The notes under the pieces were generated by a model. It made no database searches. It was not told the origin of the DNA and saw only the letters and a list, made by a program, of their open reading frames with translations. This document shows, piece by piece, positions 6,149 to 19,686 of a stretch of 64,000 nt of DNA (its first letter is position 1; each line of letters opens with the position of its first letter). The position numbers and the translations under genes are program-made. The DNA comes from Escherichia coli (GTDB taxonomy: Bacteria > Pseudomonadota > Gammaproteobacteria > Enterobacterales > Enterobacteriaceae), in NCBI GenBank assembly GCA_005400705.1, contig GCA_005400705.1_4079.1; one strand, 5' to 3'.

Positions 6149-8812
6149 TTATTGACATGCCTCCAAACGACGAGCCATTAACTCCGCACGGCGTGTGGTT
6201 TGGCGATACCAAGCAGAATTACGGATTTGTGCCGCTGCTTGTTTGTAATTACCTTTTGCCATTTCTGATAACATAGTTTTAAATTTCAATACACCACCTT
6301 TACCCATCTGAAATACCATTTGGCATAGTACTTGTTGAGCAAGATAAGGAGTTTTCATGTTATATGATGCATAAATTGATTTGGCATCATAAATTGCTTT
6401 ACTACTATCACGAACTAACATATCGTTGGCTTGCTGTTCAGTTATTCCATCTGAAAAGTTTTCACCACTAATAATCAAGTGACCATAACCAATAGTTGGA
6501 TACCCACGACTATCCAAATAACGCCAGAATTTACCATTACGATAATATCCTTTTGCTTGTTGGTATTGTAATGTACCTTCATATTCTTTTAATTCAGAAA
6601 TAAACTGTGCATCACCTGGAACAACTTTCCAATCGATTGCAGTTTTATCAACATTTCCAATATTATAGGTAGGTTGCTCCACCGGAGTTGTTGAAGCTCC
6701 ACTTCTCTGTGTTCTTCTCCTACGAGGCACATGACGAGAACCACGTTGAGAATATCCAGTACCTATCGTTTTGATTTTTGTTGTAACTACCAATTCATCA
6801 CTATCAACTGAAGGTTGTACAACTGCTTTTGGAGCAGATTGATTAGTTGCTTGACCACCAATTAATGTTTTATTCGCCGCATCAGACCCTGTTCCTGTTT
6901 GTGAAGCATAAAATAATCCTGGGTCAACAGAACCACTGAATCCAAGAACATTTGCTGATGTAACACGAATTTCAAACTGTATGACACCATTTGCTTTTCC
7001 AACAACTTGACCTTTTTGAACAACATCTTTGTTTAATAAATCAGATTGAATATTATAAAAAATAGATTTATATCCAGACTTATGTTGTATTAAAAGAGCA
7101 CCATTAGTAATTACTACCACACCACCATCTGGTGCAACTACATCACCTTTACATTGTATTTCCCAACCTGAACGGTCTGCCTTTCCTCCACTTTGTGTTG
7201 GAACACCTTTCCCCCAGTAACCATATTGTCGAATAGTACCGCTACATGGCATTAACATATGTAAACCTTCATATGTAATACTATATCCAGTCATCCCAGG
7301 ATCAGATGTCATCAAATCTTGTGATTGAACTTGTTCAGTTTCTGATGTATAGTTAACAAACTGAACAGCTTCAGTGTCTTGTGCTACGGGTAATTCTGGT
7401 GATACATCATTTGCTGGTTGTGGTTGTACTGGTGATTCACTAGAACCACTTCCACCACCTTGTCTTGGTGGTTCAACATAACTACCATGATTTTCAGCGT
7501 TAACCCATGCAGCAATATCATGAATGTGTTCATTAAGACCAGCAGATGGTGTTCTAAAGTTTGGTGCAGTAAATTCAGCAGTACCGCTATTACCACCACT
7601 ATTAACTGTTAATGTTTGACCACCACCACTAATAATTGCTGATGATGATCCAATTAGGTTTGCAGATGTTGCGGCAGAAATAGAAGCATTTGAACCAGCC
7701 GTAATATCAGTACTGCTACCACTTTGCATACGTAATGATGCAGCAGTAACTAAACGAAGGTCTGCCCCAGAATTAACAACAACTTGACCACCAACTTTTG
7801 CATCAAGAGCACCAATTAGATCTAATTTAGTATTTGCACCAACTCGTGCATTGAAATCTTGTCCGGTTTCAATATTATATGAACGTCCAGCAGTAATATT
7901 AATATCTTGACCAGCACGAATATTAATATTCTTATCACAGTGCATGTCAATATCACCTTCACCAGTGAATTTTATACGTGCAGTGCCATCACGGTTAATT
8001 AAAAGAACATCACCAGTAGCTTCTGATAAAAGAAGTTGTGCACCACTACGTGTTTTTATTACGACACCTTCATTTTTACGAGAACCAACACGTGTATCGT
8101 TTACTGGGTTATTAAATTGTGTATCTTGATATCCATCTGGGTCTTGATCCCACGTTGGTGCTGTTAATTCCTCTTCAGTATATCCATCATCAATAATAAA
8201 ACTATTACCACGTGGCGAAGACATACCATATACAGTACTGGTGGTTTGACGAGTACTACTACGATTCGCCAACCCAGCTTCTTCGTCATATAAAAGGTTT
8301 TGCTTTTTAAGACCTGCGATAATTGGAACGTTAGCATATTTGTCTTGCATATCGGTAGTGATAGTGTTACGATCATAGTCAGTAACAGGAAGTGGCATAT
8401 CAGTTCCACCATAATTACTTACTTCAGTTGCCATACCAGGAACCATAGTATTCATACGCTGGTCATATACACAACCAATCCAATATGCTTGGAATGTACG
8501 GGCTTGTGCAAAAATTACAACAACTGTACACCCTACATCTGGTGGTACTGCCCAAAAACCATATCCTTTTGGATATTGACCATATGCATCAGCACTTGGA
8601 ATACCTGGTGTTTTGCCAGCAAAAGGAGACATGTAAGATGCTTCTATCCATGATTCTTTTGAGTTTTTATCACTTTGAGAACCTTGTATCCAAACTTTCA
8701 GTTTTCCTGATTTAGTTGGATCTCTGTTATCCATAACAGTTGCTAACTGCGGATAAGATGGGTCAAAACGACCCAACTGCTGTTGTGCATACTTTTTACT
8801 TGTATCTGCCAT
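6149..8812 (-). CDS. gp5: baseplate central spike/hub protein (gp5-like) with beta-helix repeats, M23-like region and C-terminal T4-type lysozyme domain
   Basis: 887 aa; N-terminus resembles gp5 OB-fold region; central repetitive V/G/S/T-rich beta-helix-like repeats; C-terminal 150 aa paralogous to adjacent free lysozyme (EYEGT...PTIGYGH, MVFQMG, WYRQT). Confidence 0.8.
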   Translation of the reverse strand: MADTSKKYAQQQLGRFDPSYPQLATVMDNRDPTKSGKLKVWIQGSQSDKNSKESWIEASYMSPFAGKTPGIPSADAYGQYPKGYGFWAVPPDVGCTVVVIFAQARTFQAYWIGCVYDQRMNTMVPGMATEVSNYGGTDMPLPVTDYDRNTITTDMQDKYANVPIIAGLKKQNLLYDEEAGLANRSSTRQTTSTVYGMSSPRGNSFIIDDGYTEEELTAPTWDQDPDGYQDTQFNNPVNDTRVGSRKNEGVVIKTRSGAQLLLSEATGDVLLINRDGTARIKFTGEGDIDMHCDKNINIRAGQDINITAGRSYNIETGQDFNARVGANTKLDLIGALDAKVGGQVVVNSGADLRLVTAASLRMQSGSSTDITAGSNASISAATSANLIGSSSAIISGGGQTLTVNSGGNSGTAEFTAPNFRTPSAGLNEHIHDIAAWVNAENHGSYVEPPRQGGGSGSSESPVQPQPANDVSPELPVAQDTEAVQFVNYTSETEQVQSQDLMTSDPGMTGYSITYEGLHMLMPCSGTIRQYGYWGKGVPTQSGGKADRSGWEIQCKGDVVAPDGGVVVITNGALLIQHKSGYKSIFYNIQSDLLNKDVVQKGQVVGKANGVIQFEIRVTSANVLGFSGSVDPGLFYASQTGTGSDAANKTLIGGQATNQSAPKAVVQPSVDSDELVVTTKIKTIGTGYSQRGSRHVPRRRRTQRSGASTTPVEQPTYNIGNVDKTAIDWKVVPGDAQFISELKEYEGTLQYQQAKGYYRNGKFWRYLDSRGYPTIGYGHLIISGENFSDGITEQQANDMLVRDSSKAIYDAKSIYASYNMKTPYLAQQVLCQMVFQMGKGGVLKFKTMLSEMAKGNYKQAAAQIRNSAWYRQTTRRAELMARRLEACQ

Positions 8813-16288: not shown

Positions 16289-16311
16289 GGGAGCCTTAGC
16301 TCCCTTTTTTT
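16289..16311. terminator. bidirectional rho-independent terminator between gp46 and EndoVII-like gene
   Basis: GGGAGC-ctta-GCTCCC hairpin followed by TTTTTTT; overlaps minus-gene stop. Confidence 0.6.
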
Positions 16312-16787
16312 ATATCAACCATATTTAATTTACCGTCCTTAATCAGCTTTCTAGCTTGCTTTACACGAGCAGTAGTGTTACTACCAGGGACAACTCCTAA
16401 CCCTTCCAGAATCGCGTTTTGCTGTGTTGCTGGAAGCCTTTTAAACTTATTAACATCCACAGTTAGTGCTGTGTGATGTATGACTTGCTCTTCAGGTGGA
16501 ATGTTATTGTTCTTTTCAAGATAATCTGCCAGATTTCTTAGTACTTCATGAAGAGGTTTATCAGTTAAATGGCCCAGACAGCGTTTAAATGAATTTGCGA
16601 CCCTTCCTTCCCATCCATTCACCTCATTTTGAAGAACCTGTCTACAATGTTGATTTCCACCATGATAGTGGTCAAGTACTGGTTTAGTTATTTTTATTCC
16701 TATAATGGGGTCAATACCATTTTGTTTTTTTAGTAGTTCTTTTCTGTAAGCTGCTGCTTCATTGGGATTTTTCAATCTCTTTTTCAT
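16296..16787 (-). CDS. HNH-type nuclease, endonuclease VII-like
   Basis: 163 aa; LDHYHGGNQHCRQVLQNEVNGWEG resembles EndoVII/HNH motif pattern LDHDH...N...EG; antisense to flanking genes. Confidence 0.55.
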   Translation of the reverse strand: MKKRLKNPNEAAAYRKELLKKQNGIDPIIGIKITKPVLDHYHGGNQHCRQVLQNEVNGWEGRVANSFKRCLGHLTDKPLHEVLRNLADYLEKNNNIPPEEQVIHHTALTVDVNKFKRLPATQQNAILEGLGVVPGSNTTARVKQARKLIKDGKLNMVDIKKGS

Positions 16788-16847
16788 AGCGTTTTGTCCT
16801 GTTTCTGTAAATAATGTATATTAAAAAGTTTTGTGAGGTACACAAGA

Positions 16848-17804
16848 ATGGCTAAAATTACACAACAACAATTCATAGATAAATCAATGAATATTCATGG
16901 TAGTATTTACACATACAATAAAACAATATATGTCAATGCACACCATCCAATAACTGTTACGTGTAACATTCACGGTGACTTCACAGTAGTTCCTAATAAA
17001 CACATTTCTGCAAAACAAGGTTGTCCAGTTTGTTCTGATATTGCAAAGAAAGAACGAAAGTCTAAAAAATCTCTGGGGTCATTCTTCACTGAAGCTACCG
17101 AAGTTCATGGTGATAAGTATGATTACTCAAAAGTGTTTTTTAACATTCGTTCAGAAAAGATTACTATTATATGCAAAGAAAAAGGTCATGGTGAATTTAA
17201 TCAAGTAGTTAGTAATCATCTATCTGGACAAGGTTGCCCTGAATGTGCCAAAATTCAAAATGGATTAAAGAAGAGAACTCCAGAAGATGTGTTCTTTGAA
17301 GATTGTAAGTTCATACACATGGATAATTATGATTACTCTAATACAAAATATAATGGCATGTATGAAACCATTACACCATTATGTAAGAGACATGGGGAAT
17401 TCACCGTACTAGCTACTAAGCATTATCATAGAAAACAAGGGTGTCCAGTTTGTTCAGACCAAGAACTAAAATCAAAACCTGTTATTGAAATTCAGAATTT
17501 TTTAAAAACGTGTGATATAATGTTTGAAATGGAAAAGAAATTTGATAGTTGTAAAAACATCAATCATTTACCATTTGATTTTTATATTCCTGAACTTAAT
17601 CTACTAATAGAATATGATGGTATCCAACACTTCAAACCAATAGAATACTTCGGTGGAGAAGAAGGTTTAGCTGAACAACAACGAAATGATGAAATTAAGA
17701 ATAAGTATTGTTATGATAATAATATTACTTTACTTAGAATAAAGTATTCAGATGACCACATTAAAATTATAAAAGACTTCATATCAAAAAATATAAATTA
17801 TTGA
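16848..17804 (+). CDS. homing-endonuclease-like protein: N-terminal Zn-ribbon repeats plus C-terminal Vsr/DUF559-like PD-(D/E)XK nuclease domain
   Basis: Three repeats of HGxF...H...QGCPxC module; C-terminus LPFDFYIPELNLLIEYDGIQH typical of DUF559/Vsr-like fold; track start GTG 16833 trimmed to ATG 16848 with GAGG RBS. Confidence 0.6.
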   Translation: MAKITQQQFIDKSMNIHGSIYTYNKTIYVNAHHPITVTCNIHGDFTVVPNKHISAKQGCPVCSDIAKKERKSKKSLGSFFTEATEVHGDKYDYSKVFFNIRSEKITIICKEKGHGEFNQVVSNHLSGQGCPECAKIQNGLKKRTPEDVFFEDCKFIHMDNYDYSNTKYNGMYETITPLCKRHGEFTVLATKHYHRKQGCPVCSDQELKSKPVIEIQNFLKTCDIMFEMEKKFDSCKNINHLPFDFYIPELNLLIEYDGIQHFKPIEYFGGEEGLAEQQRNDEIKNKYCYDNNITLLRIKYSDDHIKIIKDFISKNINY

Positions 17805-17816
17805 ATAGTTTTTATG

Positions 17817-17851
17817 AACCAAGTAATGTTTTGTTACTTGGTTTTTTTATA
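17817..17851 (+). terminator. rho-independent terminator after homing-endonuclease-like gene
   Basis: AACCAAGTAA-tgttttg-TTACTTGGTT perfect 10-bp stem followed by TTTTTTTAT; second GTACT-a-AGTAC hairpin plus T-run at 17862-17887. Confidence 0.7.
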
Positions 17852-17896
17852 CTTCAAAAATGTACTAAGTACTTTTTTATTTTTTTATGATATTAG

Positions 17897-17925
17897 TGGG
17901 AAGATTTTAAAAATGGTGCTATAAT
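17897..17925 (+). promoter_or_regulatory. promoter, TGGGAA-N17-TATAAT class with TG extended -10
   Basis: TGGGAA 17897-17902, 17-nt spacer, TATAAT 17920-17925 preceded by GTGC; same architecture recurs at 7 other sites. Confidence 0.5.
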
Positions 17926-17931
17926 GTTTGT

Positions 17932-18387
17932 TGTAGTAATGACAATCCTGTTGAATGCAGAAATGCATATAAATTAGAACCTGATCCTATCGAAAATGTA
18001 GATGGCAGATGAGCAGTTCAACAGTGCGATGAGCAAAAGAAACCCGTTAGATGTGGGCATAGTTTGAACCCCTCACGGCAATGCGGCTCAATAAAGAACT
18101 CCGATAAGCATACAGAGAGTTCCTAGATAGACATATAAGGATCGCACCTTACCAGATTTGCTAAGGGAGTTTATTAAGTGATTTTAATAAACAGCCTGAA
18201 GTTTGATTGTATAGACTTTCAGGTGAGTGTCAGGATGATTAAGACTGACGACCGTTGCACATGACTGCGATAGAGAGAAACAGAGCAACCCGCTTTCGTT
18301 CTTAATATATTTTTAAGAAATTCGCAATACAATAAATGCTGAAACCATCAGCGTCAAGAAATAGAGACTTCATTGTCTCTTTTTTAT
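17932..18387 (+). ncRNA. candidate structured non-coding RNA (unknown family)
   Basis: About 455 nt between promoter and terminator with no ORF over 21 codons and no RBS; multiple hairpins incl. ATGCA-GAAA-TGCAT (GNRA loop), 9-bp GTTTATTAA/TTAATAAAC, CCTGAAG/CTTTCAGG, GTCAG/CTGAC; long-range complement GTGCGAT (18024-18030)/ATCGCAC (18141-18147). Confidence 0.3.
18363..18387 (+). terminator. rho-independent terminator closing the candidate ncRNA
   Basis: AGAGAC-ttcatt-GTCTCT hairpin followed by TTTTTT. Confidence 0.6.
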
Positions 18388-18603
18388 TGTCTTCATTCCC
18401 CTGCGGGGGGATGAAAATGTCCTCAACAAATCCCGTCAAGTATTAAATCTTTTAAAGTTCTTTATAATTAATTTAATTAAATGAATATGAGTTACGTAGT
18501 AACGAATATTCTTCAGCTAACGAATGAAATGAGTTAGATGAATCTAATAATATTAAAATTAATCCTTTCATAATTCAATTCAAATAATTCTGTAGTTTAA
18601 AAC

Positions 18604-18629
18604 CAAAAAAACCAGCAACAATGTGCTGG
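18604..18629 (-). terminator. rho-independent terminator after minus-strand late genes
   Basis: CCAGCA-acaatg-TGCTGG hairpin; plus-strand A-run = minus-strand T-run downstream of stop at 18641. Confidence 0.6.
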
Positions 18630-18640
18630 CTATATGAAAA

Positions 18641-18850
18641 TTAGTGCTTCTCGTTTTGTTTTTTAATTTTTTTATTAAAAGACTTAACTAATAAGTCTCT
18701 ATCTATTAATGGCATATTAAGGAGTGTTCCATAGTCAATGTTATCCATATATACAGAACATTCCATTAGTGCATTTTTGATTTCTGACTTATTCAGTTCT
18801 ATCTCCTTCAGTACTTCTTGTATTTCTTCAGGAGATGACTGGAGAAGCAT
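18641..18850 (-). CDS. hypothetical small late protein
   Basis: 69-aa ORF overlapping upstream gene stop by 1 nt (translational coupling). Confidence 0.45.
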   Translation of the reverse strand: MLLQSSPEEIQEVLKEIELNKSEIKNALMECSVYMDNIDYGTLLNMPLIDRDLLVKSFNKKIKKQNEKH

Positions 18851-19686
18851 TACTCGAAAAAATGACTAGGATCATATTTTAGTCCATCAATTTCCCATTG
18901 ATGATTACATCCATCACATTCTACTTCCATACTATGAGATACACCAATTTCAAGTACTTCATCCATTTTTTCACGAATTAGTTTAAGTACTCCCTTCGAT
19001 TGTTGTCCAAGCCATTCATTAATAAATTCTTTTTCAACTACTTCATCACCATCTGGTGTTATAATTTTTGCAATAACTCCACCAATCATATCGAAGTTAA
19101 GTTGAGCCATGTTTTCAAATACTTCAGAAAATATTTTTACTTTTTCATCTTTATCAATATCAGCAGTTTCAAGAAACTTAGTCTTCTGCTGCTCACTGAA
19201 CATGCGTTCAGCAAACGATGAATATTCTTTCCATGTCAGTGGTCTAAATTCTAAACGTAGTCCATTATCTAAATCAATTGATGGGATTTCTTCAAATGCT
19301 TGTGCAGTTTCAAGAAGATATGATAGATTACGTTCAAATCGACCTTCTTTTTCACATTCAGGACATACAACGTTAATATCATATGTTTCTTCTTTAGAAG
19401 CAACTTTAATAGCAATAAGAAGCATTTCAACGTCATTTACATACAACTCATCAGCGTCAATTACATTAGGAACACAGTTTTCAATAACACGGGATACTGC
19501 ATCTCCGTTTAGTAACATATCGGGGGTATTAAGTGTCATTTCATCACGTGCACTACGTGCACAAACTCCACATTTGACACCTTTTGGACCTAGAACTCCT
19601 TCTTTATAAGGAATAACGCCGTTTGTAACTAACTTAGTACTGATCTCTTCAATTTTAGTGTACTTAGCAAGTGGATTCATAGCCAT
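18850..19686 (-). CDS. hypothetical Cys-rich (putative zinc-binding) late protein
   Basis: 278 aa with CGVC, CPEC, CDGC motifs; GGAGA RBS; late-promoter element upstream. Confidence 0.55.
   Translation of the reverse strand: MAMNPLAKYTKIEEISTKLVTNGVIPYKEGVLGPKGVKCGVCARSARDEMTLNTPDMLLNGDAVSRVIENCVPNVIDADELYVNDVEMLLIAIKVASKEETYDINVVCPECEKEGRFERNLSYLLETAQAFEEIPSIDLDNGLRLEFRPLTWKEYSSFAERMFSEQQKTKFLETADIDKDEKVKIFSEVFENMAQLNFDMIGGVIAKIITPDGDEVVEKEFINEWLGQQSKGVLKLIREKMDEVLEIGVSHSMEVECDGCNHQWEIDGLKYDPSHFFE

Follow-up and report, generated by a model that had tools for sequence, protein, structure and literature searches.

The 64,000-nucleotide stretch analysed here (the window; contig GCA_005400705.1_4079.1 of the Escherichia coli assembly GCA_005400705.1) is DNA of a jumbo coliphage of the genus Asteriusvirus, of the 121Q/PBECO4 type. 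It is 100% identical over the query to Escherichia phage ECO103 4-12-1 (OR844650.1), and 97–99% identical to 121Q, PBECO4, phAPEC6 and G17, jumbo myoviruses of this genus. A gap free of open reading frames (ORFs), lying between an endonuclease VII gene with an adjoining 323-aa ORF and a convergent 69-aa ORF, contains an RNA element that is flanked by a predicted promoter and an upstream terminator on one side, and by an AT-rich trailer and the convergent gene on the other (Table 1). SbcCD is also encoded nearby. An earlier note on this DNA, made from the sequence alone, had proposed a promoter-driven structured non-coding RNA locus at this site, and the conserved promoters and very strong covariation described below bear this out. 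Here we report that the element belongs to a previously undescribed family of large structured RNAs, present as four or five paralogs per genome in RaK2-like jumbo phages, and that at least 13 helices and two long-range pseudoknots on the plus strand are maintained through its sequence variation.

Table 1. Features of the RNA element and its surroundings, in positions of the window
Feature	Position	Strand	Content or basis
Endonuclease VII gene	16296-16787	-	one flank of the gap
323-aa ORF	16833-17804	+	beside endonuclease VII, directly 5' of the RNA promoter
Predicted promoter	17897-17925	+	-35-like TGGGAA 17897-17902, 17-nt spacer, extended -10 TGcTATAAT 17917-17925 (TATAAT 17920-17925)
Leader	17944-17968	+	AAYCCUG-UUGA motif 17944-17954, then hairpin AUGCA-GAAA-UGCAU 17955-17968
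Core fold	17977-18333	+	RNAalifold and covariation counts
Helix H1	17981-91/18001-08	+	
Helix H2	18013-17/18023-27	+	
Helix H3a	18030-34/18086-90	+	
Helix H3b	18044-47/18075-78	+	
Helix H4	18096-101/18117-22	+	
Helix H5	18136-39/18148-51	+	
Helix H7	18194-204/18213-23	+	
Pseudoknot PK2	18206-12/18327-33	+	H7 loop AUUGUAU with AUACAAU just 3' of H10; covariation
Helix H8	18228-31/18247-50	+	
Pseudoknot PK1	18254-58/18285-89	+	GUUGC with GCAAC, 3' strand inside the H9 loop; covariation
Helix H10	18266-70/18322-26	+	
Helix H9	18273-77/18293-97	+	
Helix H11	18300-03/18315-18	+	
Helix H13	18338-42/18348-52	+	GCUGA with UCAGC; first direct-repeat copy AUCAGCGUCAAG 18347-58
Internal intrinsic-terminator-like hairpin	18363-18387	+	stem 18363-68/18375-80, then U-run; terminator scan
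Conserved 3' extension	18392-18440	+	G/C hairpin UUCAUUCCCC-UGC-GGGGGGAUGAA 18392-18415, CCUCAACAA, second repeat AUCCCGUCAAG 18430-40
Trailer	18441-18545	+	AT-rich linker, hairpin GUUAC-GUA-GUAAC 18491-18503, AAUAUUCUU, hairpin 18512-18542 with GAAUGAAAUGA loop
Bidirectional terminator	18610-18631	.	common with the convergent 69-aa gene; terminator scan; annotated in G17; conserved at P1-type loci
69-aa ORF, convergent	18641-18850	-	other flank of the gap
T4-type baseplate gene	18850-19686	-	beyond the 69-aa ORF

Members of the family were recovered by nhmmer profile search, and pattern scans of IMG/VR, JGI metagenomes and GTDB genomes, each followed by nhmmer confirmation, brought the collection to 48 distinct full-length members. 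The conserved core among paralogs is ~460 nt long (17977 to 18439/18440). For 29 sequences, RNAalifold predicted 74 base pairs, 45 of them with compensatory double changes. A scan of the alignment for covarying stacked helices then added two tertiary pairings, PK1 and PK2. The final model of 83 pairs, including both pseudoknots, was scored on the alignment of the 48 members and compared with two controls, namely 500 shuffles and models in which the partners were slid by 1–3 columns. Pairing in the 48 members reaches 94.5%, compared with 76.2% after shuffling (none of the 500 shuffles is as high) and 39–44% with slid partners. Changes on both sides were found for 60 of the 83 pairs, in 692 alignment cells as against 198 for the shuffled alignments. 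The covariation score is 0.486, versus 0.170 (shuffled) and 0.07–0.09 (slid), and again no shuffle out of 500 attains the observed value. Comparison across homologous phages, the check that the earlier note had proposed, thus finds the helices preserved beyond both controls.

Both pseudoknots are strongly preserved. PK1 is paired in 100% of the 48 sequences, and three of its five pairs covary, with the variants GUCAU/AUGAC, GUUAC/GUAAC and GUUGU/ACAAC. PK2 is 99.1% paired, and six of its seven pairs show double changes. Across the alignment, G·U cells outnumber A·C cells by 272 to 57, which points to the plus strand as the folded one. The folding energy of the single sequence is only modestly better than that of shuffled sequences (z = -2.68 for the plus strand and -1.69 for the minus strand), and it is therefore the covariation, not the folding energy, that establishes structure beyond chance. 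About 80 alignment columns are invariant, many of them in junctions (AGAUGAG, CACGGCAAUGCGGC, GAUAGACAUAUAAGG, CUAAGGGAG, GACCGU and GAGAGAAACAGAGCAACCCGCUUUCG). The tandem repeat GATGAGCA reported previously in this part of the element does exist in this copy, but the homologues do not conserve its second unit, where GAAGUGCA is typical. Some paralogs have an additional hairpin module, GCGAUNGA...UACAAUAUAGAUCCGUC with a UACAAUAUAG-type loop, whose site differs between them: it is inserted either after CUAAGGGAG or at the H11 tip (alignment columns ~255–300 and 440–470; for example, the P4 copy). The module loop UACAAU resembles the 3' strand of PK2, and no covariation with the H7 loop was seen.

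The plus-strand frames of the core contain no open ORF longer than 37 codons, and no positionally conserved ORF occurs in more than 15 of the 48 homologues, in agreement with the absence of a long ORF noted earlier. A small protein gene was rejected, as no ORF is conserved; homologues with a conserved small protein in place of the structure were not seen, the structure being what is conserved. A 36-codon ORF at 18336–18446 on the plus strand, with GGGGGGAUGAAAAUG, is broken in frame by 1–2-nt indels in close relatives and is not coding. It has a strong Shine–Dalgarno-like GGGGGG followed by AUGAAAAUG, and this GGGGGG is the 3' arm of a conserved hairpin. Curated genome records have no annotation beneath the element; automatic pipelines place three to five tiny 'hypothetical proteins' over it.

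Searches for known RNA families gave no match. With Rfam 15 (4227 families), no family matched at its gathering score in the window, or at E ≤ 10 in the region 17700–18700. In ten homologous loci searched at E ≤ 1, no match fell on the element, and there was only terminator-like noise outside the core. Because of this lack of an Rfam match, detectable membership in group I and group II introns, RNase P, transfer-messenger RNA (tmRNA), GOLLD, ROOL, OLE, HEARO and raiA is excluded. The covariance-model search suggested in the earlier note therefore places the element in no known family. ARAGORN found no transfer RNA (tRNA) or tmRNA in the window, in keeping with the previous failure to fit a tRNA cloverleaf. 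No match to the element was found in the literature, and it is not mentioned in the genome papers on RaK2, CBB, Sharanji and fEgEco12 or in a jumbo-phage survey. Single words of the sequence are similar to E. coli RNase P RNA and to the sarcin-ricin loop, but this likeness is unsupported by search and is not claimed.

It is hardly credible, and largely refuted, that the locus is a degenerate group I intron or a remnant of another known ribozyme, a repeat acting at the DNA level, or an unannotated small protein gene. Like group I introns, the element is a few hundred nucleotides long, contains pseudoknots and has homing-endonuclease-like genes nearby (three of the four genomic copies have such genes in their vicinity). 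Some short words also bear a loose likeness to RNase P or intron cores. However, besides the lack of an Rfam match, there are no flanking exons whose joining would restore an ORF or RNA gene, and the topology is different. The helix order is PK1-5', H10-5', H9-5', PK1-3', H9-3', with only CCG between the last two, and not P3-P7-P3'-P8-P7'; the 3' strand of PK1 lies inside the H9 loop, and a P8-like hairpin is absent. The long-range complement GTGCGAT/ATCGCAC, which had been likened to a group I R/S (P7) element, does exist in this copy, but it is only 57% paired across homologues, with zero compensation; the proposed P7-like pairing does not covary, and the idea of a remnant of an intron or known ribozyme is not supported. 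A repeat of duplex DNA is contradicted by the strand-asymmetric G·U excess and the compensatory changes, and a protein gene by the lack of a conserved ORF.

BLAST and nhmmer searches of the full genome established that it carries exactly four copies of the element, all on one strand, of which one is in the window. They lie at ~18.3, 128.3, 208.1 and 261.5 kb in the 352-kb genome OR844650.1, and at 90328, 326609, 247509 and 192839 in 121Q. The element is present in 72 phage records, at four or five places in each, except that most Klebsiella RaK2-type genomes have two places detectable by BLAST (Klebsiella RaK2 has at least two copies). Four or five places per genome are likewise found in phages of Salmonella (Munch, 7t3), Erwinia, Serratia (BF), Yersinia (fHe-Yen9-04), Pectobacterium (CBB), Cronobacter (GAP32) and Xanthomonas (XbC2, XaC1). 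The members from IMG/VR are on contigs of RaK2-like jumbo phages, and others are on metagenome contigs. A loose pattern scan of bacterial genomes returned 120 loci, 119 of which are chance matches. The sole member in a bacterial assembly is a full-length one at 7771–8274 of NZ_JAMGZK010000045.1, a 185-kb contig of Silvania hatchlandensis; the contig probably comes from a RaK2-like jumbo phage that was carried by the bacterium or co-assembled with it. In these searches, the element was restricted to RaK2-like jumbo phages.

From genus to genus, each paralog type (P1 to P4 are referred to here) stays at a syntenic position of its own. The P1 type, to which the window copy belongs, lies between the genes for endonuclease VII and the baseplate hub, and the P2 type lies 5' of a hypothetical gene, a dam methyltransferase gene and a cytidylyltransferase gene. 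The paralogs have the core in common and differ in their peripheral hairpins, and this, together with the separate syntenic sites, suggests related but non-redundant roles. No protein partner shared among the neighbours of the four copies was found.

This distribution bears on the suggestion that the element regulates by base pairing, as a small RNA, or that it controls the recombination nuclease genes next to it (endonuclease VII and SbcCD). The predicted promoter and terminator of its own, and its place beside both of these genes in the window, fit such a role. Nevertheless, we regard it as very improbable, since the element is ~0.5 kb long and conserved mainly as structure, and no complementarity to neighbouring genes was identified that would make a conserved single-stranded seed. 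Away from the window, the three remaining paralogs adjoin unrelated genes and are not near nucleases, and the link to the neighbouring nuclease genes suggested in the earlier note is not supported. A small stable RNA near a tRNA cluster, as in T4, is not tenable either in view of the ~0.5-kb size, the lack of tRNAs in the window and the distance of 12 kb between the nearest tRNA cluster in the genome and any copy.

Several observations concern the neighbouring 323-aa ORF. It has DUF723, treble-clef zinc finger and DUF2726 (nuclease-like) domains, and Salmonella phage Munch has a 47% identical ORF at the same site. G17 and 121Q have no counterpart, which gives the ORF the appearance of a mobile gene of homing-endonuclease type. 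In 121Q, HNH endonuclease genes are also close to two other copies of the RNA. Within the 323-aa ORF, AAAAACGTGTGATATAATGTTTG at 17500–17526 on the plus strand is similar to the promoter region of the RNA (27 nt, 89% identity); the inserted ORF may contain a further promoter of that class.

The promoter-like sequence TGGGAA-N17-TATAAT proposed earlier is present, and almost every homologous copy has an equivalent upstream: among 29 copies compared, almost all have a TGGRAC/TGAAAC -35-like box with TGnTATAAT 50–95 nt 5' of the core. Judged from the sequence, transcription would start at about 17930–17933. A generic sigma-70 scan of the window did not list this site. A 'divergent RpoD-like' promoter class, with a -35 element TGAAACG and a TATA -10 element, has been described for the phages CBB and GAP32, and in CBB it is located mostly before DNA-synthesis genes (PMC5259590). 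The predicted promoter in the window, with its -35-like box and TATA-type -10, has the characteristics of this class. The loose pattern TGRRAM-N12-17-TGNTAYAAT has 22 matches in the whole OR844650.1 genome on the strand of the RNA and none on the other. Three of the four RNA copies in that genome have a predicted promoter of this pattern, which represents a phage-wide class.

The leader motif AAYCCUG-UUGR is followed by a hairpin in nearly all of the 48 copies. The hairpin is constant in position and variable in sequence, and the GAAA-loop hairpin described previously is the form that it takes in the window. In P2-type copies (for example, in XbC2), the order is promoter, hairpin with a T-run, AAUUGAG and core, so that the predicted transcript would begin with a terminator-like hairpin. 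The block of terminator and AAUUGAG is instead 5' of the promoter in another paralog type.

Promoter class and dispersal together raise the question of whether the four or five units are replication origins, in which the transcript would fold, form a persistent RNA–DNA hybrid and be processed to a leading-strand primer. Precedents for such transcripts are ColE1 RNA II and the middle-promoter transcripts of T4 oriF and oriG, which are structured or promoter-defined and of similar length. The present RNA resembles them in its promoter class, which is of the replication phase and associated with DNA-synthesis genes, in its dispersed sites (around the 352-kb genome and all in one orientation), in the distance from start to core end (~510 nt, close to RNA II), in the G-run of its 3' part (a G6/C4 segment) with an AT-rich stretch after the core, and in that the phages encode RNase H. 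On the other hand, the inflections of cumulative GC skew do not match three of the four copies and so lend no support. The two pseudoknots and many invariant junction bases make a tertiary structure far more elaborate than in those systems, and exceed what hybrid formation should need. Neither iterons nor initiator-binding repeats were found, the only repeated motif being confined to the RNA itself. We therefore consider an origin function improbable.

The region 3' of the core fold extends the element beyond the end assigned to it in the earlier note. The internal hairpin at which the locus had been ended, at 18387, has a 6-bp stem with three G–C pairs and a 6-nt loop, followed by TTTTTTATTGT, and is predicted as an intrinsic terminator. 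It is real and covaries in five of its six pairs where it is present, but 'strong', as it had been called, overstates a stem of this size. Conservation runs to 18440 and further, and the hairpin resembles an inserted module, which the P1 and P4 types have and the P2 and P3 types lack. It is likely to be the 3' end of a short form of ~455 nt. The 3' extension beyond it is near-invariant in all 48 members, including those that have no terminator, and its CCCC/GGGG pairs are 97% paired.

Two 11-nt direct repeats, the copies AUCAGCGUCAAG and AUCCCGUCAAG with the form AUC(A)NCGUCAAG, change in parallel across lineages. They are AUCAUCGUCAG and AUCUCGUCAG in CBB, and ACGAGCUUCAAG and ACGCCUUCAAG in RaK2, where three parallel substitutions have occurred in the two repeats. 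As a possible DNA-binding site, the motif was checked elsewhere in the genome and is not enriched there, and no common pairing partner for the two repeats was found.

A homologous trailer is present in most paralogs and genera, in the order GAAUUGAG, hairpin with a ACGAAGUGA-type loop, AACGAAAAUUCUU, and hairpin UGACAUUCG-AAG-AAUGGCAA, the last with compensatory variants as judged by eye. Next comes either a co-directional gene with its ribosome-binding site (RBS) and start codon, the gene varying from case to case, or, at loci of the P1 type, the bidirectional terminator of the convergent gene. A read-through form of ~700 nt could end distally at this terminator. In one paralog type from metagenomes and IMG/VR, the gene immediately after the trailer begins with MSNNLDRSIGALVGLAVGDALG and appears by eye to be ADP-ribosylglycohydrolase-like, and in Yersinia phage fHe-Yen9-04 the P1-type trailer is followed by an inserted adenine methyltransferase gene. 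Accessory genes seem to use the unit as a landing site.

The layout of this 3' region could also be that of a cis-acting leader, in which the folded RNA, on RNA polymerase or on the nascent transcript, would govern read-through of the internal terminator, or the translation or processing of the next gene. Read-through could be controlled by processive antitermination, as with the HK022 put RNA, or in the way of the 6S transcript of lambda pR'-tR'. These systems likewise have a promoter, a structured RNA and an intrinsic terminator, and most of the present paralog types have a promoter-proximal structured domain followed by such a terminator. In several paralogs, the conserved trailer hairpin is directly 5' of the RBS and ATG of co-directional downstream genes, and the P2-type copy always precedes the same genes (hypothetical protein, dam methyltransferase and cytidylyltransferase). 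However, the jumbo-phage RNA is five to six times larger than those RNAs, and known put and EAR elements are far smaller than its domain of ~400 nt. Downstream genes vary between paralogs, and no antiterminator alternative covarying with a terminator arm was seen. Moreover, a 5' position before a co-directional gene, as in riboswitches and leaders, is found in some paralogs and not in the P1 type, the best-conserved one, which in most genera faces convergent genes and the bidirectional terminator. Because only convergent genes are downstream there, the P1-type copy cannot be a leader in those genera. A cis-acting leader thus appears rather unlikely as an explanation of the family.

On balance, we lean towards a stand-alone structured RNA that would act through its tertiary fold, as a protein- or ligand-binding scaffold or as a catalytic RNA. 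A stand-alone RNA is favoured because the best-conserved paralog has no downstream gene and because the neighbours of the four copies have nothing in common. A scaffold, ligand binder or catalyst is favoured because invariant junctions combined with variable peripheral hairpins are the pattern of ribozyme and ribonucleoprotein (RNP) cores. In the proposed scheme, transcription would begin near 17932 from the phage-specific promoter TGGGAA-N17-TGcTATAAT, and the modest internal terminator would yield the ~455-nt form. Read-through would add the conserved G/C hairpin, the second 11-nt motif and the conserved trailer, with an end near 18545 or at 18610–18631. PK1 and PK2 would clamp the 3' domain, and the ~80 invariant, mostly unpaired junction nucleotides could form a binding surface or an active site. 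The RNA would act neither as an antisense regulator nor as the leader of one particular gene.

Several points weigh against a stand-alone RNA. The literature yielded no RNA sequencing (RNA-seq) data of any RaK2-like phage, so the transcript is a prediction, and its biochemical activity is entirely our inference. Folded single-stranded DNA would tolerate G·T pairs too. The hairpin and T-run between promoter and core in P2-type copies are odd for a simple gene. Several paralogs have an RBS and a co-directional start codon immediately after the trailer, which fits a cis-acting leader as well, and a stand-alone RNA does not by itself account for the parallel changes of the two direct-repeat motifs. 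As a tentative and more far-reaching possibility, the family may be a new class of large RNA with an activity of its own, such as a ribozyme or a self-assembling RNA or RNP particle, with four or five specialized paralogs that would be co-expressed with replication genes. In that case, the covarying repeats and the paired 5' motifs might be places where the RNA is processed or ligated, or binding sites that are shared.

Among known systems, the family is most readily compared with GOLLD and ROOL, which are also large, multi-helix, pseudoknotted, stand-alone non-coding RNAs borne by phages, with strong covariation and many invariant unpaired bases. In contrast to these, the jumbo-phage RNA is not matched by the models RF01998 and RF03087, is smaller (core ~460 nt), and occurs as four or five diverged paralogs per genome in one clade of jumbo myoviruses. 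GOLLD and ROOL often adjoin tRNA genes, and the jumbo-phage RNA does not. In the jumbo phage PA5oct, of the wider RaK2-related group, RNA-seq identified four ORF-free RNAs of 236–619 nt, ncRNA001–004 (PMC7318152). Compared with the present family, ncRNA001–004 show no similarity (nhmmer --max), no signature motifs and no shared synteny.

RNAs of >400 nt with complex tertiary structure are rare in bacteria and phages, with only about a dozen known classes. Such classes have proved to be ribozymes or RNP cores, or have remained lasting puzzles, as with OLE, GOLLD and ROOL. The present family has unusually clean covariation and two long-range pseudoknots, and it is atypical of known large-RNA classes in having several paralogs in each genome, all of them at separate syntenic sites. 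It occurs in culturable phages of E. coli, Salmonella and Klebsiella, some of which have been studied for phage therapy, and therefore knock-outs, antisense knock-down, structure probing and cryo-electron microscopy are directly feasible. About 3 kb of 'empty' intergenic DNA per genome, which automatic annotation had filled with spurious small 'hypothetical proteins', thus turns out to be functional.

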